Shown: piece after piece, positions 9,639-38,902 of the stretch
Position numbering within the stretch: the first letter of the stretch is position 1
How the letters are laid out: every line of letters starts with the position of its first letter
Assembly: GCF_009931435.1 (NCBI RefSeq)
Contig: NZ_CP043414.1
Source of the DNA: Escherichia coli
GTDB lineage: Bacteria; Pseudomonadota; Gammaproteobacteria; Enterobacterales; Enterobacteriaceae
Strand: one strand, 5' to 3'
DNA length: 64,000 nt
Program-made: the position numbers and the translations under genes
Notes under the pieces: generated by a model
What the model was told of the DNA's origin: nothing
Seen by the model: the letters and a program-made list of their open reading frames with translations, nothing else
The model's database searches: none

Positions 9639-10619
9639 ATGAACGCAATAATATCGCCCGATTATTACTATGTTCTTACCGTTGCCGGTCAGTCTAATGC
9701 CATGGCGTATGGCGAAGGACTGCCATTACCGGACAGGGAAGATGCGCCTCATCCCAGGATTAAACAATTAGCGAGATTCGCGCATACGCATCCCGGAGGC
9801 CCCTCATGTCACTTTAACGACATTATTCCACTGACTCACTGCCCACACGATGTTCAGGATATGCAGGGTTATCACCATCCTCTGGCAACGAATCATCAAA
9901 CACAGTACGGCACCGTTGGCCAGGCACTGCATATTGCACGGAAATTACTGCCCTTTATTCCTGATAATGCAGGGGTTCTCATCGTTCCGTGTTGCCGTGG
10001 CGGATCGGCTTTTACCGCGGGCAGCGAAGGGACATATTCAGAACGGCACGGAGCCAGCCATGATGCTTGTCGTTGGGGAACGGATACTCCGCTATACCAG
10101 GATTTAGTCAGCAGAACGCGAGCCGCACTGGCAAAAAATCCGCAGAACAAATTCCTCGGCGTATGCTGGATGCAAGGCGAATTTGACCTAATGACCAGTG
10201 ACTACGCGTCACACCCTCAACACTTTAATCATATGGTTAAAGCCTTTCGTAGGGATCTAAAACAATACCATTCTCAGCTTAATAAAATTACTGACGCGCC
10301 GTGGTTTTGCGGCGATACCACCTGGTACTGGAAAGAAAATTTCCCTCATGCGTATGAAGCTATTTATGGCAATTATCAAAATAATGTTTTAGCCAATATT
10401 ATTTTCGTCGACTTCCAGCAACAAGGTGCAAGAGGACTGACGAACGCGCCTGATGAAGATCCAGACGATTTAAGCACGGGATATTTCGGTTCAGCGTACC
10501 GGTCAGCGGAGAACTGGACGACGTCACTGCGAAGCAGTCATTTCAGCTCAGCAGCCCGTCGGGGGATTATTTCTGACAGATTTGTAGAAGCAATTTTGCA
10601 GTTTTGGCGCGAAAGGTGA
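9639..10619 (+). CDS. nanS: 9-O-acetyl-N-acetylneuraminate esterase NanS
   Basis: 326-aa product from the ATG at 9639 (MNAIISPDYYYVLTVAGQSNAMAYGEG...), an SGNH-type esterase; completes the nanCMS operon. Confidence 0.88.
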   Translation: MNAIISPDYYYVLTVAGQSNAMAYGEGLPLPDREDAPHPRIKQLARFAHTHPGGPSCHFNDIIPLTHCPHDVQDMQGYHHPLATNHQTQYGTVGQALHIARKLLPFIPDNAGVLIVPCCRGGSAFTAGSEGTYSERHGASHDACRWGTDTPLYQDLVSRTRAALAKNPQNKFLGVCWMQGEFDLMTSDYASHPQHFNHMVKAFRRDLKQYHSQLNKITDAPWFCGDTTWYWKENFPHAYEAIYGNYQNNVLANIIFVDFQQQGARGLTNAPDEDPDDLSTGYFGSAYRSAENWTTSLRSSHFSSAARRGIISDRFVEAILQFWRER

Positions 10620-10689
10620 GCGTTCATTAATTTGATTTATTTGCATCCATCAACGCTTTTAACTGCTCCGGCGTGCGGCACTATAATGG

Positions 10690-11440
10690 TTTTCACAACA
10701 AGGAGCCATTTTCTTATACCACTTTCAGAGACCATCCGCTTATGCCACCGCCCTCTACGCAACTGTTTGCAGAGCACCTTCCCACCGAGTGGATACAGCA
10801 CCTCCTGACGCTTTCTGCTCATGCGACTATTTGTCGTCTTAACCTGAGCGCGGATGGCGAAGCGGGGATTAGCCTGCTGGCCCGCAGCGCTGTCACCCAG
10901 GAGCGCCAGCGCGTGGGGGCCCCCTGGTGGAATGGCTCTTCCGCCAGACCGCACAGACATGGGGCGCGGAACGTTACCTGAAGGATGACTGGCACGGCCT
11001 GCAACTTTTTGCCATTGATGGCGCACAGTTCAGGACACCTATGAACCTGAGTTGCGTGAATATTATGGCTCTGCCAACACATCCACTGAGCGGCAGAGCG
11101 CCTACCCGGTCATGCGTCTGGTGGCGTTAATGAATCTGGGAATCACATTCTGCTGAATGCCATGACCGCGGCCTACCGGCGGAGCGATACAGCGTGAGGC
11201 AACTAAAGCGGCGTCAGAAATCAGCTTTAAGTTCGCATTCCAGTTTATCGTGACAGAAATGATAGTGCAGGGAAATACGGCGTCACCAGGAACCATCCCG
11301 AAACGGCTGGAGCATCTGCGGGGTGCTCTGGAAGCGGTGTTCCCACGACTATCAAGGCCGAGGGCTGTTAAGGTATCAAAAACCCGTTATCCGGTGAAAC
11401 ACAGTGCTGCCCCGCTTAAGTGACGGCATTGTGTTTCTGA
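10690..11440 (+). mobile_element. IS4-family transposase remnant (frameshifted and internally deleted pseudogene)
   Basis: Three consecutive reading frames carry pieces resembling IS4 transposase (InsG-like): ...VTQERQRVGAPW, FRQTAQTWG...LQLFAIDGAQFRTP, AYPVMRLVALMNLGITFC, and a C-terminal ...RAVKVSKTRYPVKHSAAPLK. Frames are broken and no intact transposase or clear terminal inverted repeats were seen. Boundaries approximate. Confidence 0.55.
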
Positions 11441-11593
11441 CTGGCCTTAACTTTCCCTGAATCTCTGACGATCCTCACCATTGATATTTTCTTCATTCCT
11501 CACCAGAGAAATAAAAAATCACTATACTCATCAAAATATGATGATCACCTTTATTCAGGTGATCACCTTACTATTTTATACGGAAAATAAATC

Positions 11594-12244
11594 ATGAATA
11601 TCCGTCAATCATTACATGACCGAATCTATGCAGAATACCCTCAACAGGCTAAAGATATATTACTGTATTTCCCCACTTATGAAATTATGCCATCGACCAT
11701 AAAAATGGTTATGATTAATGAGGTGGTAGCTATAACACCGCAAGAAGATTTTTATACACCAGAGTCTGGTTATTTTACGACTGTCGCCCGACAGTTAGCG
11801 CTGGCTGGATTATCGGCAAGTAGTGGCGAAGTCTTACTCAACCATGGTATCTACCTGACCTCCGCACTGAAACTACCTAAAACACAGATCACAGCCACAC
11901 CCGCGGAGATCATTCTCTGGTCACCTATTGTAGAATGGGAGCTCGAACTCTTTGCCAATATAAAAGTTATTTTCGTTGGCGGCGATATCGCGCGAAAATG
12001 CCTTAACATCATCGCGAAAAAGCAAACACGTAAACATGCCATCCCTTCAACTCCGACGTACAAACTGATGAATAGCGAATTAGTCTGGAAAGGAATAAGC
12101 ATACTTCCTGGATATATTCTTACCGGAAAAAACCTGCTCATTGAAAAGTCAAAAATCGAAATGAATGTCGAGCAATTAAGAAAAGGAATTGCGATTTATC
12201 GCAATAGTAACAGTAACCATACGAATAATTCAGTTCATGAATAA
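11594..12244 (+). CDS. Hypothetical protein, low GC; possible uracil-DNA-glycosylase-superfamily fold
   Basis: 216-aa ORF in AT-rich DNA. Four short motifs occur in the order typical of UDG-like folds (VMINEVVAITPQED; GIYLTSALKLP; KVIFVGGDIARK; IPSTPTY). The match is weak and based on pattern only. Confidence 0.4.
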   Translation: MNIRQSLHDRIYAEYPQQAKDILLYFPTYEIMPSTIKMVMINEVVAITPQEDFYTPESGYFTTVARQLALAGLSASSGEVLLNHGIYLTSALKLPKTQITATPAEIILWSPIVEWELELFANIKVIFVGGDIARKCLNIIAKKQTRKHAIPSTPTYKLMNSELVWKGISILPGYILTGKNLLIEKSKIEMNVEQLRKGIAIYRNSNSNHTNNSVHE

Positions 12245-12715
12245 GAGATGAATCATTAATAACAAGAAATCACTGACAAACCACCTGTAAAAGGTCAATC
12301 ATTTTAGTTCAATTTCCTTTGTCATGATTATATTTTTATCGTCCTGACGATACTATTAACAATTACAATATTTATACCCTCCCCTGAACAAACAGAAAAG
12401 AACTCATACATTCGTTTATAATTCTGGTAATCCTGGCATCATACGTTTAAAATTTAAGGTGTTTGTTTTATAATCATGGTTCCAAAGACTATTGGTCACC
12501 AGAAAATGCCAGCCTTTTCGTGCCAGCTATATTTGTCCAGTGTGTTACCCCATCCAAAAATCATCCACATCCTGATGTTATGTTAGATATAGAGAAAACA
12601 GGTTGTACTGTGCAATATGCTAACCGCATAAGCGAATATAATTTCTAAGCTGATATTGTCTGGCTGTTGGGAGCTAAACAATATAAATATCGCCAGTTGC
12701 CAGAACGGTTATATA

Positions 12716-12741
12716 GACCAGGAGCGTTTCGGCTCCTGGTC
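12716..12741. terminator. 10-bp-stem hairpin between convergent genes (putative bidirectional terminator)
   Basis: GACCAGGAGC-gtttcg-GCTCCTGGTC perfect inverted repeat located 17 bp beyond the stop of the UvrD-like gene and between convergent ORFs; flanking T-runs are short. Confidence 0.4.
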
Positions 12742-12757
12742 TGTTTCGGACATATTA

Positions 12758-14872
12758 TTAATCAGCCACTAATAGCGGACTAGGGATACCAGATGATGAA
12801 ACAAACAGCCCTTTTACGGCACGGGTTGCAGCCACATGCAGTAACGCGCGCTCATTAAATAATGCATCACGCTGTTCAACGGGATCATCGGATGCTAATG
12901 CTTTTATTTCCGGCACAACGCCTTCGTTAATCCCCACCAGGAACACATACTGGAACTCAAGCCCTTTAATACGGTGCATCGTTGCAACTCGCACGCCTGG
13001 GCGTGCATCGCTGTCACCGCTATCATTGCCTAAATTAAATGTCTCAATTCCGGCGTCATTGAGTGCTGATGCGTAGCGGTCACAAGCATGTTTAGTACGC
13101 GCAGTAATGCAGATATCCTGAGAACGAACCTGATTCGCCAGCAATGCCTGAATTTGCTTGACGAGTGTTGCAGCCTCTTCTTTGAAATCTGCCGCATGCG
13201 TAATCATGGGCTTTTCCCCGTGCAGTAATGACAAATAATCATTACTGGTATCCGCTTCGCCATCGAGGTTATCAACCTTCACACCAGTTAACAGCCCAAC
13301 AGCAAATTGACGCGTCTCTTCTGTGGTCCGATAGTTAATCTTCAATTTTTTACTGCGACGACCACGGACGTTAATACCACACTGACCAAGAACGACCTTA
13401 TTGCGATAAATACGCTGATGCCCATCCCCGACAATAAACAGATCGTTGGGCGACTCGGGAACCAGGCTGCGAATAAGAGTAAATGCCGGGGCACCGATAT
13501 CTTGAGCTTCATCGACGACAATACTGCTATAAGGTAGTTGGACCTGCTTTTCTTTAAACAGAACAATAGCCTCATGCATGGCATCGCCCATTTCGCGCAG
13601 TTTGGCACGCGCCATTTGTGCTCTGAATTCTTCGAAAACTGGCCAGATTTTCGCCCGTTGAATACGGGATAACGCTGTACCACGTCCAACCCGGCTGACT
13701 TTGAGGTATTCCTCCCGGGTGTAAACCGCATTTGGCTGGACAACGCGTTGCCACTCTTCAGCATAGAAATTGTCAGGTAGCCCCAGTTCGGCAGGTGCCT
13801 GCTGCAAGGCATAGTTCCAGCATTTACGTCGCCCTTCATCGCTGTCGTATACCACGCGGAAATCATAACCGTGGCGTTTTAGTTGGTCGCTCATCCAGGC
13901 ATCAATGTTAACGACGTCAATACGCGCCATCTCTTCTCGCGTACACAACCGCTGGAGATTAGCGCGAATATCTGCCGCCAGGTTACGCGTAAAGGTCGTG
14001 AAAAGTACCTTCTTACCGGGTTTATCTACCAGACGCTGAGATAACCACCGCGCACGGTGCATTGCAACAACCGTTTTCCCTGTACCTGCACCGCCCAGTA
14101 CTCGTACCGGACCATTAGCGGGCGACTCCACCAGTTTTCGCTGGCTCGGGTGCAGAAATACACGCCATTTTTCTAAAGGCGCATTAAGCATCTGCAATAG
14201 TTCCTGTTCATTTTCAACGACATGGAAGCGACGTTTACTTCGTTCAATCGCCTCCATAAAGTCGTTGGTATCAACAGGCTCATCACGATGATCGTTAAAC
14301 TCTTCCAGCACTTCCTGGTAATCCAGCCCTTCTGCCAGCCAGTGCAGAGGTTCCCAGGCTTCTGCTGGCATTATGCTTTCAAGTTGATTAAGCCCGGCTT
14401 CATCGGTAAGCGCCATCACCTGATCAATAAAGACAGGCGGCACACCCAGGGCCAGAATCTGTTCCGCGCTGTAAGCTGCGAAGAGTTTCGGTTTATCAAC
14501 CACCGTTTCCGCTGCCGGTTTGATATAGCTAATATCAATGACCTGAATCGCGCCAGTAACCGGGTGAATCGAACAATCATGCCGCCGCGCCCAGTCATAT
14601 GCTTCGTCGTGTTTATCCACCCACATCAGCATATACAGAGCACCCTGTTCAGGTTTCAGAACAATGCCGCGATAAGTTTGATCGATTCGCACCGAATGGA
14701 CATTTTTACTGCGCGCATCGTGGATCTTTTCATAGTTAAGTCCATTACTGGTCGGGTCCTGACGGAATTTGGAGATGAATTCCTGCACCTTTTTTTGCTG
14801 TGCTTTTGGGATCCGCGCGAATGCGCCCAGAAAACCATCAGAAAGTGCCACCTTGGGCGTTTGCACCGTCAT
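12758..14872 (-). CDS. UvrD/Rep-like superfamily-1 helicase with an extra N-terminal domain of about 200 aa (last gene of the DISARM-like operon)
   Basis: SF1 helicase motifs in order: Walker A GGAGTGKTVVAMHRA, VVDEAQDIG (motif II), FIVGDGHQRIY (motif III), KINYRTTEE (motif IV), ATMHRIKGLEFQYVFLV (motifs V/VI). The N-terminal region (...NVHSVRIDQTYRGIVL...) is not helicase-like. Its start overlaps the stop of the upstream giant gene by 4 bp (ATGA-type coupling). Confidence 0.7.
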   Translation of the reverse strand: MTVQTPKVALSDGFLGAFARIPKAQQKKVQEFISKFRQDPTSNGLNYEKIHDARSKNVHSVRIDQTYRGIVLKPEQGALYMLMWVDKHDEAYDWARRHDCSIHPVTGAIQVIDISYIKPAAETVVDKPKLFAAYSAEQILALGVPPVFIDQVMALTDEAGLNQLESIMPAEAWEPLHWLAEGLDYQEVLEEFNDHRDEPVDTNDFMEAIERSKRRFHVVENEQELLQMLNAPLEKWRVFLHPSQRKLVESPANGPVRVLGGAGTGKTVVAMHRARWLSQRLVDKPGKKVLFTTFTRNLAADIRANLQRLCTREEMARIDVVNIDAWMSDQLKRHGYDFRVVYDSDEGRRKCWNYALQQAPAELGLPDNFYAEEWQRVVQPNAVYTREEYLKVSRVGRGTALSRIQRAKIWPVFEEFRAQMARAKLREMGDAMHEAIVLFKEKQVQLPYSSIVVDEAQDIGAPAFTLIRSLVPESPNDLFIVGDGHQRIYRNKVVLGQCGINVRGRRSKKLKINYRTTEETRQFAVGLLTGVKVDNLDGEADTSNDYLSLLHGEKPMITHAADFKEEAATLVKQIQALLANQVRSQDICITARTKHACDRYASALNDAGIETFNLGNDSGDSDARPGVRVATMHRIKGLEFQYVFLVGINEGVVPEIKALASDDPVEQRDALFNERALLHVAATRAVKGLFVSSSGIPSPLLVAD

Positions 14873-17800
14873 TTGTCACCTCCGGACAGATGTTGCAATG
14901 TATTTTCGTCAATTGGCCCGAATGCAACGTGCCAACCCCTGGTTGTGAATAATGGAATAAATTCTTGATTATCAATAATCAATGCCCATTTTTGTGATGG
15001 CCAGGCGAGATCGGCTTCCGCAATAATTTCACCTTCATCATTTTGCAATTCGTAGCCGAGAGTCGGCGCAGAGAGAGAATGAGACTGAAGCAACGCGATC
15101 TCTTCAGCGCTTAATAAGCCAAACTCAATAATCTCAGCCCAACTTTCATCAGTCTCTGGTACTGCCTCTGGCGTTGCCGTAACTTTAACGTCAACGCTTT
15201 CCTGCGGTAAATGTACGGCTTTACGGCTGGTAAAGGTCATATCCGGCAGGAACTGTAACAGGTTTACCAGTCGCCAGAAGCCATTGAGTCCCGCTTCATA
15301 ACCGTCATCCTGCGTATAGCGATCGTCAAAACAGATATGCAAACGCAGCCAGCTGCGCATTTGTGCGACACTGGTCGTCGGTTTAATGGCTTGTTGTGGC
15401 AACACCGAAGCCAGCTCAATAAATTGCTGCGATGAGTTACAGCTATCGAGTAAACCACCAAAGACAAACGGTTCGTCTGGCAAAAGCTCTGCTAGCCGCC
15501 AGTCTGGCGCGTTTTCCTGCATTTCATAGGCATACTTTTGTTTCGTTCCCGCGTCCTGTGACTTCTTCACATCCAACCACACCCAGGCATGTGCAGCAGC
15601 CATTTTCTGCCATAACTGCGTTCTTCCTCCCGGCTCGGCGAGATAATCCAGCAGCAGTGCAAAACTGTTGCGTTCCCGGAACGACGCTTCAAGGGCCGCA
15701 AAGTTGGTATCGTGAAACAGGTTATAAAACTTAGGCTGTTTCATATCCGGGTTATGCCCAAGCCCCAGGACATCCTGAACATGTTTAAGCCCAGGCTCTT
15801 TGAGATCGGCCCACGTGACTGTCCACACCCAGAAATTACCGCTATCCCGAATCGCCTGGCGTTTTTGCACATCCTCTGCGACGCTATTTTTGTGAAACGC
15901 AAAGCCATCAAGGAAAATAGCTACCGGTTTAATGGCATCAGACTGCATAAGCGGATATAGCACGTAATCCGGGCGACAAGGGATCCCCACAGCCTCTTTA
16001 GCGCCTAAATCCACCTGAGCTTTAAGATGCCAGCTCATCATCGGTTCGCTGCGGGTGTTAATAATCCACCCAGCGCCCTGATGCGCGTAACTGCGACTGA
16101 CAATCAGGTTTTTATTTTCTTGCAGGCAGCTAATAAACCGTTTTTCCAGCTCACTGCCCATCATGGCTTCGAGGGAAATGTTTTTGATGGAATCAATTAC
16201 CCGTATCGAATCTCTTGCCTGCAAAATTTTCGCCAGCAAGAGACGCGCCTGATCGCGGGAGACATACTTCATGCGCCCACGGTCACGGTAAGCGTAAACG
16301 CAACGATAACAACCATCTTTATGCGTATCATGGTTGCAACTGCATTCCACTATCGCCTGATAGGCCAGTTCAAGTAATTTCAGCAAATTGTCGGGAGTGC
16401 GCATCAGCTCTTTAAGAGAACCAGTCCCCCCCGGGACGGTATCGTAAATCACCAGATACTGCCGCCAGGATTCGCCTTCATTTTCCGGCTCGCGGTACAC
16501 AACGCCTTTCAGGTGATCGACATTCCCCTTGAAGTAATGTTTAAGGCCGAGCTGGATCGCCGCCCCAAGAGAAGCCTCCACGACACGGTCATTACTGTAA
16601 CTGCTTACCGGGAGCAGAATTCGCAACGCTTCTGACTCCAGCTGGCGATAGAGATAGAGATAATCTTCGAACTTCGCCTTTTCCGGTTCCGTGCGATATT
16701 TGCAGCTCAAATCATGACGTGGTTCATGATCGCGAGGACGCTGTACCATGCCGCACCCCAGGCAAACTTTAAACCCGGTTCGCTTCTTCGCTTCTCCGGC
16801 AATCATCAACTCATTGGCATCATCCGCCATTTTGCCGAAGTTGATATCCCGCAGGGTGACTTTGCTTAAAAATTCAAAACCAAACGGAACTTCGCCTTCC
16901 TCAATCGCGTATGCCGCCGATACATCTTCTTTTTCGAAACTAACCAATAGCTGACGCTGGAAGAAAGCAGGTTCACGGCTGTCGCTCTCGTCGCTGATCT
17001 GGCTATCACGTGCGCTGGCGCGGGCATACACCTGGCGAAGTTTCAGCAGCGTGGTTTTTTGTCCGGCGTCGGCCCACCCCGGTGTGCCACATTTCGGGCA
17101 ATATTTATGCTGGTCGCCCGTCTGGTCGATATTTTCGCTGTAGTTACAGTGGCTACAGATACGCCAGTTCTCCGGCTCAGAGACCTTCAGGTCTATCTGC
17201 TCAATTTCAACTTTATGCCCACCGGCATAGAAATTATTCAGCGGAGCCAGCTCAGCCAGCGCCGTTGATGCCGGGCGTTCATATTCGAAAGTGGTGTTTT
17301 GATATTCACGCGCTTCCCCGCCTTCTTTACGCCGCCAGAGCACAGAACGTAACGTAATACCGGCTTCCGGGAAGGCGTAGTTAGGCAGCAGACCTTCATC
17401 CGTGAGGAAATTCAGCGTCTGCTTATTGTTGATTTGATTGACTAGCGCCATCAGCGCCTGCCGTTCTGAAGTTAACTCGCGCATATCGCTGTCAAAGTTT
17501 TGATCGCGCGGCGCGTTCTCCAGCTTATCGATACTGCGCTTGAGTTTATCGATGCGTGAACGCAGAGATTTGCGATCTTCCACCAGCAGTTTTAACGCCT
17601 CTTCGATACGCTGCACCAGAGAGCGTTGTCCTGGCGCGCCCTGAAGATAAGACAACAACTGTTGGCGAGTTTCTGCGGCAAGATCGGGGAAGATCGCCGT
17701 AAATTGTGCAGCAATCTCCGCATGATGCTGTTCGATATATCTCAGTAAGTTATACGGAAAACCCGATTTACGCCCGAACTCCAGCTCATCCAGCATCTGT

Positions 17801-20800
17801 TTGACGTTTTTACAGATAGCGGATTCTGGTACACCGGTTTTCACCCAGTTATCCATACAAAAAGCTGCCAGCTGGCGTTCGAGAATAGCCGTTGCATTGA
17901 GGAAGACGCCAGGAGCCTGCACCTGGCCCTGCATCATCTCCAGCGGTTCTTCAAAGAAAAACTGATCGTGCGGGTTCCCTTCTGCCACGGTAATGTTTAA
18001 CGCGTTACCATCTTTACGACCGGCGCGACCAATACGCTGCAAGTAGTTGGCCTGAGCAGGTGGGACAGAACAGAGTAAAACGGTGGAAAGATCCCCAACG
18101 TCAATACCCATCTCCAGCGTCGGTGTTGCCGACAACAGGTTGATATTCCACGGTTGGTTGCCACGGTAGAACGATTTTTCGGTGGCTTCGCGATCTTCAC
18201 GGCTAAGCAGCCCCGTGTGTTCTGCGCCCTGCACGCGCGCGATGTCCATGTTCTCCCAACGCCAGGTCGCCATATTGTCGACTTCCTGGTAACGACCTTC
18301 ACAACGTAAAGAGAGACAAGGCGCATTACGCCACTGCCAGCCTTGATCGGCCGGAGCCCGGACAACCTCACGGCAACATGAGCAATTAAGCTGAACGACG
18401 TCACGGCTCACCACCAGCGCCGAAGGCACCAGTCCCCAGGCTTCACGCCCTTTGGTGTCAAAATCTTTTACTACTCCGGCTATTTTCAACGCCGTAAACA
18501 GGCGTCGTAACACTGTTTCCGCAACGCTACTGATAAACAGATTATTGCCGTTACTCAGCGTGCGATTGATCCAATGCTGATACCAACTGGGGTTAGACTT
18601 CGCGCCAATCAGGCGATGGAAACCATTAATTTTTTCAAACGACGCATAAGCCGGTTTACGCGTTTTCGGACCGATAGAAGGCATATAGCGCGATGTACGC
18701 TCTTTTTGCGTCATCATAAAGGTCGTGCCATCACGGCGATAACTTTCGAACGCCGGATGCATAACGGCCCCGGCCTGGCGTTGATACCAGATAACCCCCA
18801 GCGCCAGGTGCGCTACCTGCTCGACGCTCACACCGGACATCTCATCACCCAGCTCTTCACAAAGCTGTTGATGCAGGGCGGTAATTGCCGGATTAAAGCG
18901 TTCTTTATCCACTCCGGCAACGGCATAACCGGTGGCTTCCAGCGTACGTCCGATACGCGCGCGCAGGGTAAATTCGCTGTACACCTCCCAGTCGAGGCGC
19001 AGGGAAACCAGCTCCGGCAGATCGGAGTTCTCCGCCAGTTTGCCTTCATTTTTCAGTGTCTGATAATCATTCAGCCACTGCATATTTGGTGCGATGAAGT
19101 TCGCTGCAAAATGAGCATCGTCCGGTGAACGTTCACGCGTTTGTTGGCAAACACGCGCCGCGAACGCATCCAGCGGTAATGTCTCTTTTTCGCCAAGAAC
19201 ACTGGCGATTTGCCCACGAATCATCAGCGGCCAGGTTCGGGCAGTAAAAAAGCTGGCACGATGCGCGGCGTCTTGTACCGAGTCAGAAAACGTAATCAGC
19301 TTTTTATGTTCGTTGAACTGGCTGCCATAAAGCTGGTGAATCATCACCGCCGACAAACTGGCAGCCCGTGACCCCAGAATCGAAATCCCCTGTTTGCTGT
19401 TGCAGTACGGGCATTCATTAGCAAACTCCAGCTCGTCCTTACGCTCTTTGAGCATATCCGGGATCAGTACCTGCAACAGTTCCGTATGACCGCAATGTCC
19501 ACACTGGACGCTGGACTGTCGGTTCAGTTTCAGACAGGTAGGGCACAGTTTCTGGTGTGCGCCACTGACCGCTTTTTCGTTGTTATCCGGGAAAGCAAGG
19601 ACGATGGAGCGCCCTTTTTCAAAGAACTGGCGATAAATGCCGTCGAGGTCTGTTTCCAGCTGAACGCTTTGCCCATGACGCAGGCTGGCCCAGCCAGTTG
19701 CGTGGCAGTCACGGCAGTGGATAACCGGCAAATAGTGTTCGCGGTCTTCCACCGCCACATCATCGGCAAACACCAGTCTCGGCGTTTTCGCCACGCTGGC
19801 GACCAGACGACGCATCTCACGAAGCCACAACTGGGAGCGCAGTTGCACAAACGGCAGCACCGGGCGCGCTTTCTTCGCCTGGAGACGTTTTTGCCGATCG
19901 TGTTCCATTTCCGGTACTTCGAGACGTGCCTGTGCGATCAGCGCCAGAATGCTTTGCAGCACGCGTCGGGCATGGTCGGCGCTTTCTGCCAGCATAACCT
20001 GGAGATTTTCCAGACACTCTCGTTCAGAGAGGATCCCGCCTTGCAGATCATGGAGTAAGACATGCATCACGCTGTGGCGGCGTAACAGTGACCCCAGCGC
20101 AATACGCTTTTCACGCCCGTCGTCGCTCTCCAGATCGTCCGGGAGTTGCAAGTCGCTGTCGGGGAACCACAAAGGGATTTGCCCGTTAAGATACGCTACC
20201 GGGGTAGCGTAACTCTGCGGGTCCAGGGCCGAAGCGACCTCCTGCCCCGGATACTGACTGTACGCAATGGCGTAATCCTGCAAGTACTCCGCTGCCGTGT
20301 AGCGATCTTCGCGAATAACGGCGTCATCGGTAAACGGCTGGTCAAAGATTGTTTTTGCGTAATCGAGCAGTTGCCCCAGTTCGTCGCCGACGGTCGCTGA
20401 TGTCCCGACACAGGCGAATCGTTGGTTATCCACACCTATGTGATGCTTCAGACGTCGCACCAGACAGGCCAGATCCGACCCTTGCGCGCCATCAAACGTA
20501 TGCAATTCATCCACGACCAGGTAGCGCAATGAACCGGGCTGGTTGTAACGCCAGAGCGGCTGATCGCCAGGGCGCATCAGCAGGTAGTCGAGCATTTTGT
20601 AGTTGGTCAACAGGATGTCCGGCGGGCTTTCGCGCAGCGTGTGCTTGCAGGTAATGACCTTTTCTGCCGACATTTTTTTGCTGGGTTCGATTTCGCTGTC
20701 GCCGACAAACAGGCCGACGGTCACCTTGCCATGCAGTTGTGGATCGCTGGCGATGGTTTTGGCGAAACGGCTGGCCTGATCGGTTGCCAGGGCGTTCATC

Positions 20801-21210
20801 GGGTAGATGATAATCGCTTTAACCCCGGCTTGTGACGCGCCCGCGCAGTGGTTGAGCAGCGGGAACATAAAACATTCTGTTTTACCGGAGCCGGTACCGG
20901 TAGCGACCAGTGTCGGCTGTGGCGCGTCGCTTCCCAGACGCTGAAATGCCCGGGCCTGATGCGCGTGCGGCGGGAACGGCAGCGTCAGATTAGGGAAAAA
21001 ATTCAGCGGTAAGTCACTTTTACGAAACGGCAACTGGGCGGAAAGGTATGGTCCTTTCAGCAGCGTTTCCGGCTGGGCCAGAAATTGCTCCAGCATTGAG
21101 ACATTATCGTTATTCTCACCGTTAAACAGCGGGCTGTTTAGCGGGAACGCCGCCCGTAAAAAGGCGGCAACGCTGTCGGCGACCTGCCGACTGACAACGG
21201 ACGGCAACAT
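14869..21210 (-). CDS. Giant 2113-aa fusion protein: N-terminal DEAH-box SF2 helicase, DUF1998-type zinc ribbon, and a C-terminal restriction-endonuclease-like (Vsr/DUF559-like) module (DrmA+DrmB-like or DruE-like)
   Basis: Helicase motifs GTGSGKTECFMFPLL (I), VVDELHTFDGAQG (II), VGTSATV (III), QRIGRAGRKDG (VI). Cys clusters CSHCNYSE...YCPKCG and ECSCNHDTHKDGCYRCVYAY are typical of DUF1998. C-terminal segment RPDYVLYP...VAIFLDGFAFH...D..KRQAIRDSGNFWVW resembles a PD-(D/E)xK Vsr-like nuclease. Start overlaps the methyltransferase stop. Confidence 0.7.
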   Translation of the reverse strand: MLPSVVSRQVADSVAAFLRAAFPLNSPLFNGENNDNVSMLEQFLAQPETLLKGPYLSAQLPFRKSDLPLNFFPNLTLPFPPHAHQARAFQRLGSDAPQPTLVATGTGSGKTECFMFPLLNHCAGASQAGVKAIIIYPMNALATDQASRFAKTIASDPQLHGKVTVGLFVGDSEIEPSKKMSAEKVITCKHTLRESPPDILLTNYKMLDYLLMRPGDQPLWRYNQPGSLRYLVVDELHTFDGAQGSDLACLVRRLKHHIGVDNQRFACVGTSATVGDELGQLLDYAKTIFDQPFTDDAVIREDRYTAAEYLQDYAIAYSQYPGQEVASALDPQSYATPVAYLNGQIPLWFPDSDLQLPDDLESDDGREKRIALGSLLRRHSVMHVLLHDLQGGILSERECLENLQVMLAESADHARRVLQSILALIAQARLEVPEMEHDRQKRLQAKKARPVLPFVQLRSQLWLREMRRLVASVAKTPRLVFADDVAVEDREHYLPVIHCRDCHATGWASLRHGQSVQLETDLDGIYRQFFEKGRSIVLAFPDNNEKAVSGAHQKLCPTCLKLNRQSSVQCGHCGHTELLQVLIPDMLKERKDELEFANECPYCNSKQGISILGSRAASLSAVMIHQLYGSQFNEHKKLITFSDSVQDAAHRASFFTARTWPLMIRGQIASVLGEKETLPLDAFAARVCQQTRERSPDDAHFAANFIAPNMQWLNDYQTLKNEGKLAENSDLPELVSLRLDWEVYSEFTLRARIGRTLEATGYAVAGVDKERFNPAITALHQQLCEELGDEMSGVSVEQVAHLALGVIWYQRQAGAVMHPAFESYRRDGTTFMMTQKERTSRYMPSIGPKTRKPAYASFEKINGFHRLIGAKSNPSWYQHWINRTLSNGNNLFISSVAETVLRRLFTALKIAGVVKDFDTKGREAWGLVPSALVVSRDVVQLNCSCCREVVRAPADQGWQWRNAPCLSLRCEGRYQEVDNMATWRWENMDIARVQGAEHTGLLSREDREATEKSFYRGNQPWNINLLSATPTLEMGIDVGDLSTVLLCSVPPAQANYLQRIGRAGRKDGNALNITVAEGNPHDQFFFEEPLEMMQGQVQAPGVFLNATAILERQLAAFCMDNWVKTGVPESAICKNVKQMLDELEFGRKSGFPYNLLRYIEQHHAEIAAQFTAIFPDLAAETRQQLLSYLQGAPGQRSLVQRIEEALKLLVEDRKSLRSRIDKLKRSIDKLENAPRDQNFDSDMRELTSERQALMALVNQINNKQTLNFLTDEGLLPNYAFPEAGITLRSVLWRRKEGGEAREYQNTTFEYERPASTALAELAPLNNFYAGGHKVEIEQIDLKVSEPENWRICSHCNYSENIDQTGDQHKYCPKCGTPGWADAGQKTTLLKLRQVYARASARDSQISDESDSREPAFFQRQLLVSFEKEDVSAAYAIEEGEVPFGFEFLSKVTLRDINFGKMADDANELMIAGEAKKRTGFKVCLGCGMVQRPRDHEPRHDLSCKYRTEPEKAKFEDYLYLYRQLESEALRILLPVSSYSNDRVVEASLGAAIQLGLKHYFKGNVDHLKGVVYREPENEGESWRQYLVIYDTVPGGTGSLKELMRTPDNLLKLLELAYQAIVECSCNHDTHKDGCYRCVYAYRDRGRMKYVSRDQARLLLAKILQARDSIRVIDSIKNISLEAMMGSELEKRFISCLQENKNLIVSRSYAHQGAGWIINTRSEPMMSWHLKAQVDLGAKEAVGIPCRPDYVLYPLMQSDAIKPVAIFLDGFAFHKNSVAEDVQKRQAIRDSGNFWVWTVTWADLKEPGLKHVQDVLGLGHNPDMKQPKFYNLFHDTNFAALEASFRERNSFALLLDYLAEPGGRTQLWQKMAAAHAWVWLDVKKSQDAGTKQKYAYEMQENAPDWRLAELLPDEPFVFGGLLDSCNSSQQFIELASVLPQQAIKPTTSVAQMRSWLRLHICFDDRYTQDDGYEAGLNGFWRLVNLLQFLPDMTFTSRKAVHLPQESVDVKVTATPEAVPETDESWAEIIEFGLLSAEEIALLQSHSLSAPTLGYELQNDEGEIIAEADLAWPSQKWALIIDNQEFIPLFTTRGWHVAFGPIDENTLQHLSGGDK

Positions 21211-24200
21211 CAGGCGCTCTCCTTATCTTGTGCAAAGAACGCCCAGGCCACTTTGTAGTCGTCTTCGCGATCCGGCTTGATAAACGGTGCCTGCCAGGTG
21301 ACGGTACGGCGCTCGCCTTCGTCGCTGCGGGTATAGTCATCAAAGGTGACGCTGACGGTACCGGTTTGCAAATGTTTGACATCATCCCAACCGATGGCTT
21401 GATCGGTGCAGTCACCGCCGGTCCACTCCGGGCTGTCGACGTTAAAGACAAAGCCGTTTTTCAGGTCAGCTTTACGCGCGGTGCGAGGCAAGCCAACGCC
21501 CACCAACCCTTTGCTTGGGGTAAAGATGATGCGGCCGTTTTGGTCGTACCAGGTGTCCGCTTCGTACTGACGCATCACCGGGAACTGTACACGGTAAATG
21601 GTAAGCAGCTCTTCGAGGGTTAACCCCAGCGCCTGTGCCACCAGAACGTCGATTTCCACCAGCGCCTGACGACGACTGTAGTCGGAGCGTAAGGCACAGT
21701 TACGCTGCCACTCTGGGGTCAGATTGGCGAAGAAATCTTGTGGGAGCTGCGGGAGATCGCGGCTCCAGCGTTGGGTATTGAAGTCTGGGGTGTAGCAGGA
21801 TTGCCAAAGGCCAGCATATACATCATTTACAGAATTTAATGATAATACTAAGCAGTATAATAATGCCTTTTGTCTCGGATTGAATAATACGTATGAGAAA
21901 CCATCAAGCATCTGATGTAAGTTTGCCTTGCCAGTAGATTTACAAATAAAATCAAAAGGTAAAGAAAAACACATACCTGAATGTTCGAGTAACTGATTCT
22001 GTGAGCTATAGCAGTAAGAACGTACTGCGTTCATGTGACTTATTTCTGGCGGATAAATAGCACTAATTAGTGTACGTTCCCCCGATTGAGCCAACATGGC
22101 TCTGATAGCTAAGCGATAATAATCTGTTACCTTCTTCGGTTCATCTTCAGCCAGTTCAGTCCATGTAACGCATGGAGTACGTTTGGCATACTCCTGTGCA
22201 TCACAGGCTGGAATATAGTTAGTGCGCGGCAAATAGTCGTCGGGCAGAGTTAGCAAGTCTAGGTTATCGTATGCTTTATTCGTGTCACAAACCGCTCTAG
22301 GCGTATTGTAGAAAGGATTGCCAACAAAAAAATGAGGGCCAGACAAAACCCATTGTGATGCTTCTTCCGGGAACTGTGTATGTCGCTCAATTGTACCATC
22401 GCTTTGCTGATTAGTTTCATGCCACATTTCTAGAGAATAATATTGCCCCTGCAAATCACCTAATCGCCTAGGTTGTTTCGCAAACTTTTCAAGTACTGTA
22501 ACTAATTGTGTAGCATGCAACGCAGGAAGACGGGCTTCCTGGGCAGGAGTTCCGACAACATCATAAAGACGCGCAAAAAGACCCAACTGTTTTAAATTTA
22601 TAGGCACGACTCGATCGAAATGTCCCTGGAAATTCCATTTAACTTTTACTTTGCCATCGATTTCAGTTTCTTCTTTTATCCCCGGGACAATGCCTTCCCC
22701 TTTATGTTCAAAACACGCGTCAATAGTTTGAGGAATAAATAAATTTGCTATATTTGAGAATGCCACTATCTGAGAATAGGGGCCATATACATTGATGCTA
22801 AATCTAGTGTGATTATCTACTTCAGCAAATATTTTAACTTCATTGGCAAATTGAAAATGCGCCCTCAACCTCGGGTACACTGCCGCACGCAACTGCCCAC
22901 CTTTCGGGTCATCATAAATCCCTTCCGGGTGCAGGAAGCCTGCCACGCCTTTCTCTGCCCCTAAGCGCCATGCCTGCGGCAGGAAGCATTTATACAAGTT
23001 GGTCTGCACCCCGCGCAGTACCGGGTAGTTTTGCTGCGCATTGAGGAAGTTTTGCATCCCTTCACAGCCTTCATACTCGCTGCGCCAGGCCGCTTCCAGC
23101 GCTGGGATCTGGTTAAAGGTATCAACACGCAACGTTGCCAGCTTCGATGCACTCAGCTTACGCAGCACAAATTCCGGCTCGTAATCACCCAGCACGCCCG
23201 CTTCCTGCCATTCCACTTTTAGCCACGGCGGGTTTCCGAGCATCAGGTCAAAACCGCCGCGCTCGGCAAACAAGTCGCAGAACTCCAGATCCCAGTGGAA
23301 GAAACGGTGCTGCTTTCTCAGGGCATCGACAATCGCCAGACGCGGCAAATGGCGGAACAGCACATCGGTTTTCAGACGACCAGCAACGGAAAACAGCGAA
23401 GACTCTTCTCGCAGCAGGCCTTCTTCGGCAAACAGATCGCCAGTGGTGTGATCCGCAACTTCAGTGACTTTTTCCGTGATTACAATCCCGTCGAGCAGGG
23501 TTTCAATCTCAAACAACCAGGTACCGCGATCCGGTAGCTCATCAGCTTTGTCGATCGGCCAGAACCACAGCGCGCACCAGTAGTCCATCACCCAACGCAG
23601 CTTCTGGTAGGCGCTGTTATCTTCAAGACGACCGCTAAAGGTTTCATCTTTACTGCTCAGCGAAGAACGTGTCTGCTCGCTGTTTTCTGCCGGCCACACC
23701 GGGTAGCTGTCGGCGGTTTTCAGACGTTCTGCTTTAAGTTGCTGGCGATAGGTGTTCCACAGTGCTTCCACCTTTTCGCTGATACGCTGCACATCAGCAA
23801 TCTCATGCCCGGCAAAGCTTTTAATAAACTCTTTGCGCCAGCTGTCCAGCGCTTTGAAGTCATCCGGATAACGCTGCTTAACAGTTTTATCGCTGTAATT
23901 AGCCATACCGCCGTCGGGCAGCAGGAAGTGGAAAATCTGCGTCTCTTCACGCGGCGTGTTCATCGCCAGTTCGACCGGCTCGCTGTTAAGCCAGCTCGGA
24001 TCTTTGACTTTTTTGTAGGTCAGTTCGCTCTTGTTGAACACCTGACGGCGCGCGCCCACCAGCGAGTTACCGCAGTGCAGCTGGTAACCAAACCACGGTA
24101 CAAAGGCATCGCCACTGATGGCGTTCAGCCACAGTGACACTTCCGCCAGCTCCACCGCCACCGGGTTTAAGTCCACGCCGAAAACGTTGTTGTCGGCAAT

Positions 24201-26144
24201 GTACATTTTCACCCGCTGTAACTCCTGGGTGTAACGATCCTGCGGAATACGTCGACCTTCCGCCTGCTGTTTGTGGAACAGATACGCTTCCGCCAGCTGG
24301 TTGATGGCTTCGTTAAGGAACGCCGCGCTGCCCATCGCCGGTTCGCACACGGTGAGGTTTAAGATGGCATCAGCTTTGGCGTGCGGATCGCTAATGGGAT
24401 CAATCTGCTCCTTAAACAACTCTTTCAGGGCATATTTAACCAGTGAGCGGGTCAGCACTTCCGGGGTGTAATAAGAGGCAGATTTCTCACGGTCGCGTCC
24501 GGCCATACGGTAGATAAAACTGCCTTTGCGGTGAATGCGCAGGCTGCCGTCTTTCTCGTAGACCTTCTCGTCTTCGTGGTATTTGCCAATCTCATCCTTA
24601 CTGACGAAGTAACCCGTCTCCAGCTCGTTAAACTCTTCTCCGGCTTTCTTCACCTCGTAGAGATCTTCGCTGGCGAAGAATCCGCGATAGGAGAGCAGTG
24701 CCTCATACACCGCACCCAACTGGTTGATACCCAACTGGCGATAAGAAATACGTCCGCGGCGGTTAAAGCGCTCTTTGCCCGGGCGGCTTAACGACATCGC
24801 CTGGATAATCTGTTGCAGGGTTTCGTTACGGAATACCACGCGGTTAAGAATGCGCGTGTTGTTGGCATCAAACAGATGACTTTCCAGACGCGGGACGCTG
24901 AACTGATGACTATGGATGGTGATCCGGTCGCCGCTCTCCAGGTCACTCTGCATTTTCACGCCGCCGTTGTAGCCTTCGCGCACCAGTTTAAACAGCATAT
25001 TCAGGCTGTCGTGGAAGTAGCGCCCGTTGCGATCTTCTTCGCTGGTCAGCGGGATCATCTCCAGATCGCGCAACGTTTCCAGGCTGTAACCTTGCAGATA
25101 GGTTTTGGCGGTCATCGGCGCATAACCCAGCTCCGGGCGCGCTTCAATGTAGAACAGGAACAGCAGGCGGTACATGTAACGCAGACATTCGCGGCTCAGT
25201 TCATCCGGGTCCACCGCACGGTTACCGGTATAGTTTGCCAGGCCACGGTCGATCAGGTAATGCATCGCTTCGTTGCCCAGCAGCTCAATGCTTTCGCGCA
25301 GGGCATATTTCAGATCTTCCGACACGCCAAACGCATGTTTGTGCGAATTGTCATCCAGCGAGTCAAGATAAGGTGCCCCACTGCCCGGCAGCAGAGAATC
25401 TTTATGTAGCAACACCGCCGTCGCTTTCAGCGTATCCGTTTCACGACGACTTAAAATCTCTTCAAAATCAAAACGCAGCAGACGGTTTTGCGCCCACTTA
25501 GTACGGTCCAGCAGCAATAGCTGACGGTTACCGAGCAATAGCACAAAACGCGGAGGTTCATTTTGGGTGAAGACCGCCGTAGAGAGCAGATCTTGCCAGC
25601 TGCGATATTCACCGTTGGCTTTTTTGCGCAGGCTGTCGCGCTTATGTTTGTCGGTATCCGCCGGGAATTGCGCGGTCAGTAAAGAGAGCGCCAGCGGATC
25701 CAGCGTTCCCTCTTCCTGATCGTGTGCTTCGACAATCCACAGCCACGGGCTACCGTCAGTGCTGTTGTAACGCGCCAGTACCGGCAGCGGTGTATCGTCA
25801 TCCAGCATTTGGATCTGCGGCGTAATTTCGTAACCCAGCGCCTTTAACAATGGCTGCCAGCGATTACGTTGATCGGCCAGACGTTGCGGGATCTGACGCT
25901 GTTTTTCGTGCTCGGCAAGTTTGCGGAAAAACTCAGTCGCCAGACTGTTAAACTGGTTCCACGGAGCGCGGTATCCCGGCTCTACGTCTTTGCCCTGTTC
26001 ACGAGCGGCACGCTCCGCTTCACGCGCTGCATTTTCCTGGGCTATCCAGGGTTCCAGCACATCGCGGATATCACTGGTGAAAACCTCACCCAAATAGTGG
26101 TTAGAGTAAAATTCGTTTTCGTTATTAATACCGACCAGCGCCAT
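21210..26144 (-). CDS. Very large (1644 aa) gamma-class N6-adenine DNA methyltransferase (DrmMI/PglX-like)
   Basis: AdoMet-binding motif I (...LNLTVCEPAMGSAAFLNEAINQ) followed later by the catalytic motif IV LMLGNPPWLKVEW (NPPW), which is the gamma-class order. It has long N- and C-terminal extensions and sits 2 bp downstream of the SNF2 gene. Confidence 0.75.
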   Translation of the reverse strand: MALVGINNENEFYSNHYLGEVFTSDIRDVLEPWIAQENAAREAERAAREQGKDVEPGYRAPWNQFNSLATEFFRKLAEHEKQRQIPQRLADQRNRWQPLLKALGYEITPQIQMLDDDTPLPVLARYNSTDGSPWLWIVEAHDQEEGTLDPLALSLLTAQFPADTDKHKRDSLRKKANGEYRSWQDLLSTAVFTQNEPPRFVLLLGNRQLLLLDRTKWAQNRLLRFDFEEILSRRETDTLKATAVLLHKDSLLPGSGAPYLDSLDDNSHKHAFGVSEDLKYALRESIELLGNEAMHYLIDRGLANYTGNRAVDPDELSRECLRYMYRLLFLFYIEARPELGYAPMTAKTYLQGYSLETLRDLEMIPLTSEEDRNGRYFHDSLNMLFKLVREGYNGGVKMQSDLESGDRITIHSHQFSVPRLESHLFDANNTRILNRVVFRNETLQQIIQAMSLSRPGKERFNRRGRISYRQLGINQLGAVYEALLSYRGFFASEDLYEVKKAGEEFNELETGYFVSKDEIGKYHEDEKVYEKDGSLRIHRKGSFIYRMAGRDREKSASYYTPEVLTRSLVKYALKELFKEQIDPISDPHAKADAILNLTVCEPAMGSAAFLNEAINQLAEAYLFHKQQAEGRRIPQDRYTQELQRVKMYIADNNVFGVDLNPVAVELAEVSLWLNAISGDAFVPWFGYQLHCGNSLVGARRQVFNKSELTYKKVKDPSWLNSEPVELAMNTPREETQIFHFLLPDGGMANYSDKTVKQRYPDDFKALDSWRKEFIKSFAGHEIADVQRISEKVEALWNTYRQQLKAERLKTADSYPVWPAENSEQTRSSLSSKDETFSGRLEDNSAYQKLRWVMDYWCALWFWPIDKADELPDRGTWLFEIETLLDGIVITEKVTEVADHTTGDLFAEEGLLREESSLFSVAGRLKTDVLFRHLPRLAIVDALRKQHRFFHWDLEFCDLFAERGGFDLMLGNPPWLKVEWQEAGVLGDYEPEFVLRKLSASKLATLRVDTFNQIPALEAAWRSEYEGCEGMQNFLNAQQNYPVLRGVQTNLYKCFLPQAWRLGAEKGVAGFLHPEGIYDDPKGGQLRAAVYPRLRAHFQFANEVKIFAEVDNHTRFSINVYGPYSQIVAFSNIANLFIPQTIDACFEHKGEGIVPGIKEETEIDGKVKVKWNFQGHFDRVVPINLKQLGLFARLYDVVGTPAQEARLPALHATQLVTVLEKFAKQPRRLGDLQGQYYSLEMWHETNQQSDGTIERHTQFPEEASQWVLSGPHFFVGNPFYNTPRAVCDTNKAYDNLDLLTLPDDYLPRTNYIPACDAQEYAKRTPCVTWTELAEDEPKKVTDYYRLAIRAMLAQSGERTLISAIYPPEISHMNAVRSYCYSSQNQLLEHSGMCFSLPFDFICKSTGKANLHQMLDGFSYVLFNPRQKALLYCLVLSLNSVNDVYAGLWQSCYTPDFNTQRWSRDLPQLPQDFFANLTPEWQRNCALRSDYSRRQALVEIDVLVAQALGLTLEELLTIYRVQFPVMRQYEADTWYDQNGRIIFTPSKGLVGVGLPRTARKADLKNGFVFNVDSPEWTGGDCTDQAIGWDDVKHLQTGTVSVTFDDYTRSDEGERRTVTWQAPFIKPDREDDYKVAWAFFAQDKESA

Positions 26145-26146
26145 GA

Positions 26147-38500: not shown

Positions 38501-38902
38501 ACAAGCCAGTGTATGCAGATAACCCGAAGCTTGCCCCAGGTTTCTTATCTTTCTTTTCCAGTAGCGAATGCCATCATTAACCAGCTTCTGTCGATGAACA
38601 TACGGAACTTTCCAGTCAATAGAATCTAAAATTGTGTCCCATTTAGGGTGTCCGACCGTATGAGTCCGGCGGATAAACTCTGCGGCATATATGCTAAATA
38701 GAACATCGCTATAGGAAATGAATATCGTTCTTGGATAACTACGAGGGGCATATGTACGCAGTAGTTCTGCCAAACTTTCGTACTCTGTATCAGTACAACG
38801 GTAAGCATATAACGCCCGTCCATCAGCTCCGGATAATGAACGGCGACTAAAAAACATGTTAAGCCATTGCAAAAGTGGGTTAACTGGAGTTTTCACAAGC
38901 AA
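35543..38902 (-). CDS. druH: 1119-aa protein of unknown function, DruH-like partner of DruE
   Basis: Large low-GC ORF with no recognisable catalytic motif, translationally coupled to the DruE-like gene. The pairing and size agree with the two-gene Druantia type III layout as I recall it; assignment is by context only. Confidence 0.5.
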   Translation of the reverse strand: MLVKTPVNPLLQWLNMFFSRRSLSGADGRALYAYRCTDTEYESLAELLRTYAPRSYPRTIFISYSDVLFSIYAAEFIRRTHTVGHPKWDTILDSIDWKVPYVHRQKLVNDGIRYWKRKIRNLGQASGYLHTLACEGGLPIRMIENESGYLITYFRRIYQALRGQASQYPAAKIAQELGDTIPVTMQNELVYEIAGEFCETLCRLLSEHPPQSSDPVSALRKLSPDWHLQLPLVLPEANAAEIVRRLLSQSSEIRSASSLQVERIWVDVDDSWYCDARFRFPATMRTEQLTSLFECHIQPEQTRLIISGKWRNGGARLAMLSRYEQQDWRVELLPIAMQKLSGADAMAEISLSLHEGPILLGHTIPKGGYELTEELPWVFEAMNESESQLKLVGMGSVSSRLNALFISLPKNSHLDISGEGEFDIPRLLKNSERSLTKISGVFSVVLHDGAVCTIRTQQLYDSAIEYYIKSTEVELVKSDYPVHRAWPKIGWKKDLQYGIVPEKELFWRSIRSGNNAWYSVASEMPKGQIEVRRIVNDEVLFSGKVVVLPADFDINIIPESAQQGIIMLSGITDTRIDKYSNNEKVTLKSDYSQNECAIYYNSSQMLENTVDLRVSWKDGSNLKLLLPKPVSGGRFVTNDGSVHFDGVASIAHLHGIDAELLTISCAGRGYLNIELLDENPVAEKFRYLHADLPLLSGRNDKLQQISLYENYNLLNAMLACAWNSNSTLCVDFYSDRFGKDKATLNIKRYDGSFIEHDQGLLVDIKNSVVFPANRIDELVVDAISLKDPGLHKSLLKKDEFAYDLSALNVQDSPWLIVGKLDGTARIAPVIKWMLPVLQTNDLLLNALCEADPEQRKKNFNELIFEIDNNPLQNYCCLLTEYIKKYKMNNGLSLLDLDLFRGISSNYRVVVQLLISSCLSGDSDTIYDIQEELPFSWGWIPVSIWKDVFQKCWTYLEKQINDKTLALHILQPFIAFMNHRAHIDRRLAPIANMLLTYSESLPTGCDVLPTVSREQFNEAKQMLLRNPDSFGRISIFPKELWSSAITPELKSVFNKLWIEDKYHSRLEKRFNLMLVAALLTQKDNNLIHQLSALFEFHYQQAPQQLGVIYQYYFEQAGVCH

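Follow-up and report, generated by a model that had tools for sequence, protein, structure and literature searches.

The Escherichia coli open reading frame (ORF) at 11594-12244 (+) of the window, by which we mean the whole stretch of 64,000 nucleotides that was analysed, encodes a real, divergent member of the UDG-fold superfamily that is homologous to uracil-DNA glycosylase (UDG) families 4 and 5. The ORF is genetically independent of the helicase/methyltransferase operon beside which it lies. We consider it probable, with some reservation, that the ORF encodes a stand-alone, operon-independent predicted DNA glycosylase with a role in either repair or defence; the substrate of such an enzyme would most likely be a non-canonical base.

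The ORF lies at the border of a chromosomal defence island

The ORF runs from an ATG to a TAA and encodes a protein of 216 amino acids (ORF listing), and the first-pass annotation had placed it exactly, as a small ORF beside an IS remnant. RefSeq WP_001026378.1 is identical to this protein in sequence and is also present in strain N3; the copy in a second E. coli locus (L001) has only one synonymous change. Upstream of the ORF are nanC-nanM-nanS and a frameshifted IS4-family transposase remnant (about 10742-11423), which is annotated in near-identical genomes as 'transposase, frameshifted' or 'IS4 family transposase'. On its other side, the ORF faces the 3' end of a convergent helicase/methyltransferase operon (12758-29005, -), from which it is separated by a 513-bp AT-rich spacer. 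The GC content is 41% in the ORF, 36% in the spacer and 50-57% in the operon. The layout of the locus is the same in near-identical E. coli chromosomes and, therefore, we take the window to be an E. coli chromosomal island beside the nan/fim region.

Based on PADLOC models, the operon encodes, all on the (-) strand, a DrmD-like SNF2 helicase (26147-29005), a type IIG/DrmMI-like methyltransferase of 1644 amino acids (21210-26144), a DruE/DrmA-like giant helicase of 2113 amino acids (14869-21210) and a UvrD/GajB-like helicase (12758-14872). With a methyltransferase and helicases matched by these models, 'methylation-based defence operon', as it had been called from the sequence alone, is a fair description. 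A complete Druantia type III pair, i.e. DruH3 of 1119 amino acids and DruE3 of 2107 amino acids, was identified at 29229-38902, also with PADLOC models, so that the DISARM-like operon and Druantia type III lie back to back across 12758-38902.

The ORF encodes a divergent UDG-fold protein

Searches with the ORF protein alone gave sub-threshold results. PF03167 matched aa 81-152 with an E-value of 0.003 and 18.1 bits, which is under the gathering cutoff of 24.3 bits, and phmmer against the PDB gave a marginal match to 2d3y, the family-5 UDGb of Thermus thermophilus (E 0.18). Scans of the ORF against NCBIfam, PADLOC and PHROGs gave no match. A homologue search returned 111 clusters, nearly all of which carry a precomputed PF03167 match; the clusters from outside E. 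coli/Shigella are 36-48% identical to the query.

We built two alignments of the family. Alignment A1 contains 32 sequences with 37-42% identity to the E. coli protein over the alignment, and has 35 invariant columns; its profile matched 2d3y with an E-value of 0.0012. An exhaustive profile search of 1.84 billion representatives identified 441 clusters at E<=1e-3 and 73 clusters at E<=1e-30. For alignment A2, which contains 31 sequences and is more diverse than A1, the profile matched 2d3y with an E-value of 1.9e-9. Moreover, 20 of the 31 members of A2 matched PF03167 at E<=0.01 (best E 6.4e-8), and hhalign, run with reference sequences identical to the PDB chains, aligned A2 to 2d3y with 97.3% probability (E 2.7e-11) and, along nearly all of its length, to the Thermotoga family-4 UDG 1l9g with 96.1% probability (E 3.2e-9). 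The UDG-like order of motifs that had been noticed from the sequence alone is, accordingly, beyond chance, and a significant sequence-profile match to the superfamily is obtained with the family profiles.

The AlphaFold2 model built on A1 had a pLDDT of 85.8 and a pTM of 0.85, and displays the core alpha/beta fold with a parallel sheet and the likeness to solved UDGs that define the superfamily. The structural comparison suggested in the first-pass annotation gave a clear answer: in a Foldseek search of the PDB with the predicted structure, the top matches down to an E-value of 1e-3 were all proteins of the UDG superfamily, i.e. 2d3y (E 3e-6), 4zby, 1ui1, UdgX and TDG. A search of the BFVD viral structures gave generic UDG-like matches only (E of 1e-5 or higher). 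Based on the profile, hhalign, AlphaFold2 and Foldseek results, we conclude that the assignment of the UDG fold is secure. The assignment is not new, since the current annotation already names the protein correctly: newer PGAP versions call it a 'uracil-DNA glycosylase family protein' and older annotation a 'hypothetical protein'. A literature search returned nothing on the protein accession and nothing on a UDG family protein tied to a defence island. As it stands, the finding is an unsurprising one: a protein of a known superfamily that is as yet uncharacterised and has an unusual set of motifs.

The clade retains an acidic motif-1 residue and lacks the motif-2 His

The equivalent of motif 1 in the E. 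coli protein is I-N-E-V-V-A (aa 41-46; 11714-11731, +), at the C-terminal end of strand beta-1 as placed by hhalign to 1l9g. In this alignment N42-E43 corresponds to G-E of the family-4 motif GEGPG, i.e. E43 occupies the position of the family-4 Glu and the Gly before it is Asn here. I41, N42, E43, V44 and V45 are invariant in A1, and position 43 is Glu or Asp in 30 of the 31 members of A2. Compared with the family-4 signature GE(A/G)PG, N42-E43-V44-V45-A46 keeps only the Glu; most relatives have Pro46. The family-5 motif GLAPG could not be aligned to this region, which reads I-N-E-V-V-(P/A) in the clade: the hhalign and HMMER alignments to 2d3y start at residue 81 or later, and the N-terminal half with GLAP(G/A) and Asp75 is left unaligned.

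Strand beta-2 and the motif-3 equivalent, GIYLTSALKLPKTQI (aa 85-99; 11846-11890, +), were identified with HMMER and hhalign, as was the motif-2 equivalent PGYILTGKN (aa 172-180; 12107-12133, +), which has PGYILT (172-177) as its core. The signature 'GxYxTxAV(K/R)' in beta-2 and 'SY' in motif 2 are shared with UDGb of family 5 (TTHA1149, 2d3y). In family 4, N80 of the Thermus thermophilus (Tth) enzyme makes bidentate hydrogen bonds to N3/O4 of uracil, N89 (N120 in family 5) positions the water, a role has been described for the motif-1 Glu, and N80, N89 and H155 matter most kinetically (PMC5387724). In the E. coli protein, S90 is at the site of the uracil-reading Asn (N80), I99, which is Tyr in most relatives, is at the site of the water-positioning Asn of families 4 and 5 (N89/N120), and I175 occupies the place of the catalytic His in family 4 (FHPS, H155) and family 5 (SYH, H190). 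Thus, neither the His/Asn pair of family 4 nor that of family 5 is present. Within the motif-2 equivalent, P172 is conserved in 29 of 31 and Y174 in 28 of 31 members of A2, and His is found at position 175 in only one of the 31. With Ser, Ile and Ile in place of the residues that are key to family-4 kinetics, it is not certain that the protein is active. The description of the protein in the first-pass annotation as being 'without obvious catalytic residues' therefore holds for the motif-2 His and the motif-3 Asn, which are absent, and fails for the acidic motif-1 residue, which is kept.

Additional positions are conserved. At the end of strand beta-3 and in the following helix, GDIARKCLN (aa 130-138; 11981-12007, +) contains the family-specific residues G130, which is invariant, D131 (26/31) and N138 (28/31); we infer that residues of this segment may be part of the active site. 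Position 53 is Phe or Tyr in 28 of the 31 A2 sequences, and K93 is present in the same number. Either F53 or Y60 may provide the base-stacking aromatic side chain. As read from the alignments, a set of strictly conserved residues is peculiar to the clade; the 35 invariant columns of A1 together with the conserved positions of A2 amount to a level of constraint that is typical of an enzyme.

Families 4 and 5 bind a [4Fe-4S] cluster through four Cys residues. The E. coli protein has a single Cys, which is in none of the four ligand columns. All four columns (A2 columns 91, 105, 186 and 202), which are those of UDGb, are kept by six divergent members of the 31 and by none in the E. coli clade. 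This pattern suggests that the Fe-S cluster may have been lost stepwise within one family. Because the acidic motif-1 residue is kept, the His and Asn are lost and the Cys residues are found only in divergent members, the clade looks like a derivative of the Fe-S UDGs without the cluster. It would branch near the Fe-S families 4 and 5 and UdgX and would have lost the iron-sulfur cysteines; family 4 UDGa (1l9g; Thermus 1ui0; Sulfolobus 4zby) and UdgX (6ail) are, together with UDGb of family 5, among the closest known enzymes.

The E. coli copy differs from near-invariant residues of its family at eight positions (P46A, N90S, Y99I, P121A, N148H, R159M, R169S and S173G). These departures could reflect either relaxed constraint or retuned specificity. 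The E. coli copies differ from one another by 0-2 substitutions, all scattered singletons, and this is too little polymorphism to measure selection. Members of the family differ widely in isoelectric point and charge counts, which are uninformative on DNA binding.

A proposed mechanism with a water-holding motif-1 Asn/Glu pair

MUG/TDG enzymes (family 2) are active without a motif-2 His, which is absent both in these enzymes and in the protein described here. By analogy, N42 could hold the catalytic water. Motif 1 of MUG/TDG is GINPG, in which the Asn is shifted by one position compared with N42. The likeness is one of analogy, with no detected sequence relationship. In the mechanism that we propose, the protein would bind DNA and flip a non-canonical base, for which a damaged or modified pyrimidine is the likeliest candidate, into a pocket. 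This pocket would be made up of N42-E43 in the motif-1 loop, T89-S90 where strand beta-2 ends, D131/N138, and P172-G173-Y174-I175 in the motif-2 loop. The N-glycosidic bond would be hydrolysed by a water held by the motif-1 Asn/Glu pair in a MUG/TDG-like manner, leaving an abasic site as the product; stabilisation of the leaving group by His, as in families 1, 4 and 5, would not be used. An active protein would represent a further family of the UDG superfamily, with a motif-1 Asn-Glu, no motif-2 His and no Fe-S cluster as its unusual catalytic layout, and would be additional evidence that glycosylase folds are readily retuned to new bases.

Relatives of the protein are found outside defence neighbourhoods

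The clade comprises approximately 440 clusters at 50% identity, and is found in gut Firmicutes, Bacteroidota, an apparently archaeal contig and Enterococcus megaplasmids. The E. coli cluster has members in E. coli/Shigella only, and the closest relatives beyond this cluster, in Muribaculaceae, Clostridia and on Enterococcus megaplasmids, are at most 48% identical. Such a restricted distribution speaks for one event of horizontal acquisition, on a long branch, and we conclude that the ORF was probably acquired by horizontal transfer. No relative was detected in phage genomes by tblastn, and among plasmids tblastn detected the Enterococcus megaplasmids only.

We examined nine neighbourhoods of homologues outside E. 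coli, and neither a DISARM-like operon nor another recognisable defence system was found in any of them (0/9). In Muribaculaceae, the homologue (UDG-like) is part of an array with HxlR, DJ-1/PfpI, YCII, tautomerase, FMN-reductase, GrpB, AraC and CAT genes. In Clostridia, the homologue is located directly 3' of a gene for a pyrimidine-nucleoside phosphorylase and is followed by AzlCD; in an integrative element, it is accompanied by genes for a WYL regulator and DUF3795. The apparently archaeal contig has a CYTH neighbour and, nearby, a gene for a Hef-type helicase-nuclease, and a further contig has an array of HXXEE genes together with an acetyltransferase gene. The remaining homologues are located downstream of a gene for a Cys/Met PLP enzyme in a spore-former, between ilvIH and AraC/AzlCD on an enterobacterium-like contig, with a NUDIX neighbour beside a prophage integrase, and, on an Enterococcus raffinosus megaplasmid, with ABC-transporter/TetR genes on one side and AraC/sugar genes on the other.

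Beside homologues in unrelated taxa, regulators of the AraC family recur in three contexts and AzlC/AzlD transporter pairs in two. In Muribaculaceae, the start of the homologue overlaps the end of the FMN-reductase gene inside the DJ-1/YCII/tautomerase/GrpB/CAT array. The Muribaculaceae and the AraC/AzlCD contexts give hints of a link to stress or detoxification. We also observed a recurrent association with the Cys-rich domain DUF3795, which one family member carries as an N-terminal fusion and which flanks the gene of another (L011 5480-5794, 8609-9364).

A defence role, inactivity or another substrate as less likely readings

Brig1, Brig2 and Brig3 are proven antiphage enzymes with the UDG fold, and have family-4 UDGs as their best structural neighbours; their substrates are alpha-glucosyl-5hmC for Brig1, 5-aminoethyl-dU and related bases for Brig2 and 5hmC for Brig3, and 8 of 42 Brig1 homologues are found near BREX/Pgl genes (PMC11078745; 10.1101/2025.10.29.685425; 10.64898/2026.02.25.707755). 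Like the genes for these enzymes, the E. coli ORF is a small stand-alone gene, and it is located in a defence island, at the border of which it meets the DISARM-like operon and Druantia type III. By analogy, the protein could excise a modified base from phage DNA, with the resulting abasic sites blocking replication, and could in this way complement the methylation-based systems nearby, from which hypermodified phages escape. Such a reading has the glycosylase mechanism in common with the stand-alone enzyme proposed above and departs from it in biological role only. The ORF is, moreover, AT-rich, IS-flanked and patchily distributed (92 of 5426 genomes), and two base-reading positions are changed in the E. 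coli copy (N90S and Y99I), all of which would fit such an enzyme. Against this, hhalign of A1 and Brig1 gave a probability of 0.2% (E 0.36), i.e. no sequence relationship, and motif 1 of Brig1 is GLNPG as opposed to INEVVA here; comparison by sequence was made with Brig1 only. Furthermore, the ORF has no match in PADLOC or PHROGs, it is often lost while the island persists, and the relatives are outside defence neighbourhoods, with 9/9 contexts beyond E. coli consisting of metabolic, regulatory, detoxification or unannotated mobile-element genes. Since Brig1 is unrelated at the profile level and location is the sole support, a defence role would be drawn by analogy, and we regard this kind of antiphage glycosylase as unlikely, if still the strongest of the alternatives.

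A more elaborate version of this idea, to which we assign a slightly smaller and likewise low probability, is that the ORF encodes a defence glycosylase from an undescribed His-less and Fe-S-less UDG clade, of which it would be the first example native to coliforms. Its ancestor would have been a repair-type enzyme of gut anaerobes that was retuned at base-reading positions (N90S, Y99I and S173G), and it would excise a hypermodified phage pyrimidine and cover a blind spot of the methylation-dependent DISARM-like and Druantia systems beside it. If the predicted glycosylase restricts phages in addition to being active, it would stand beside Brig1-3 as a counterpart native to E. coli, and would be a concrete case of a modified-base-directed enzyme travelling with methylation-based defence.

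Still less probable, in our assessment, is that the protein is a non-catalytic or decaying UDG-fold passenger, or an enzyme that acts on free nucleosides or nucleotides. In favour of this reading, the protein has neither the canonical His nor either Asn, the E. coli copy has the eight departures described above, E. coli has repeatedly lost the ORF, variants shortened to 161 and 177 amino acids exist, and the evidence for a promoter is weak. Similarly, the homologues located directly 3' of the pyrimidine-nucleoside phosphorylase gene or beside NUDIX and CYTH genes would be in line with a free nucleoside or nucleotide as the substrate. On the other hand, each of the 92 copies in complete genomes is an intact ORF with a CDS annotation, the E. 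coli protein keeps the 35 invariant columns, which it does by construction of the alignment, and MUG/TDG are active without the His. To our knowledge, no UDG-fold enzyme acts on free nucleotides.

The ORF is independent of the neighbouring operon

The first-pass annotation had raised the possibility that the protein senses modified bases in partnership with the operon, and had itself named absence or disruption of the ORF in most operon-bearing islands as the observation that would speak against this. We examined 5426 complete E. coli genomes using the UvrD-helicase gene of the operon as its marker. This gene was present in 525 of the genomes and at 22 plasmid places. The intact ORF was present in 92 genomes, in each case on the chromosome and in no case on a plasmid, and was annotated as a CDS and not as a pseudogene. 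In 40 further genomes the ORF is truncated by IS1, with the last 165 nt or less being kept, and in about 356 genomes, which have the flank allele of the O157:H7 type, it is cleanly absent. Thus, with 92 intact copies compared with 525 operon-bearing genomes, the ORF is absent or disrupted in most islands that carry the operon, precisely as the annotation had specified; at least 75% of the operon carriers and 22/22 plasmid places are without it.

Co-occurrence, co-transcription and a match to a system model, by which a DISARM-like component would be recognised, were not found for the ORF. In total, we conclude that the ORF is cargo at the edge of the defence island and not a component of the DISARM-like operon, and that its tie to the operon is positional only. 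It is very improbable that the operon uses the ORF product as an accessory component or as a sensor of modified bases, and this reading is largely refuted by the co-occurrence data: the ORF does adjoin the operon in every E. coli carrier of the ORF that was examined, its 3' remnant accompanies the operon at another site in the tRNA-Phe/integrase island of ATCC 8739, where the ORF is cut by IS1, and END nucleases use inactivated glycosylase domains as sensors (PMC12191111), but the ORF is convergent to the operon on the opposite strand with its own 5' region, the 513-bp spacer and a different GC content, the operon is intact in O157:H7 after a clean deletion of the ORF, and the homologues in the nine contexts elsewhere are never beside such an operon, and the ORF matches no PADLOC model.

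Sequence features flanking the UDG-fold gene

The 5' flank of the ORF (11424-11593, +) contains a weak Shine-Dalgarno sequence (GGAA at -12), and a sigma-70 scan of the region upstream of the ORF detected no convincing promoter. A sequence scan identified a perfect palindrome with 9-bp arms, TGATCACCT-N6-AGGTGATCA (11542-11565), which contains two GATC (Dam) sites and is located 29 nt upstream of the start codon of the ORF. The palindrome could be an operator or, alternatively, a terminator for the IS remnant. An Rfam scan of 10600-12800 gave chance-level matches only.

BLAST against the O157:H7 locus (L003) delimited the segment that is present in one allele and absent in the other to roughly 666 bp (11601-12266), from codon 3 of the ORF to 22 nt past its stop codon. 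In the O157:H7 locus, the flanks are 90-94% identical, the body of the ORF is missing and the operon is intact. The 5' flank is kept in this allele, with a degenerate left arm of the palindrome, and the retained 5' region, ribosome-binding site and ATGAAT start are joined to the sequence 22 nt past the stop codon of the ORF (L003 6470-6500), leaving a mini-ORF of 11 codons. The indel junction is marked by AATA microhomology only. The boundaries of the indel nearly match those of the ORF, and a deletion as well as a cassette-like gain are both conceivable.

Two further observations concern the intergenic regions. In the spacer between the ORF and the operon, TTTAAA-17-TATAAT (10/12) at 12446-12474 (+) is the best sigma-70-like match of the region, and is directly followed by a TTG-initiated ORF of 61 amino acids (12463-12648) that has no RefSeq annotation or Rfam match. 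Between the IS remnant and the ORF, the direct repeat TCCTCACCA is present twice, 25 nt apart (11472-11512), and may represent an IS end or a regulatory repeat.
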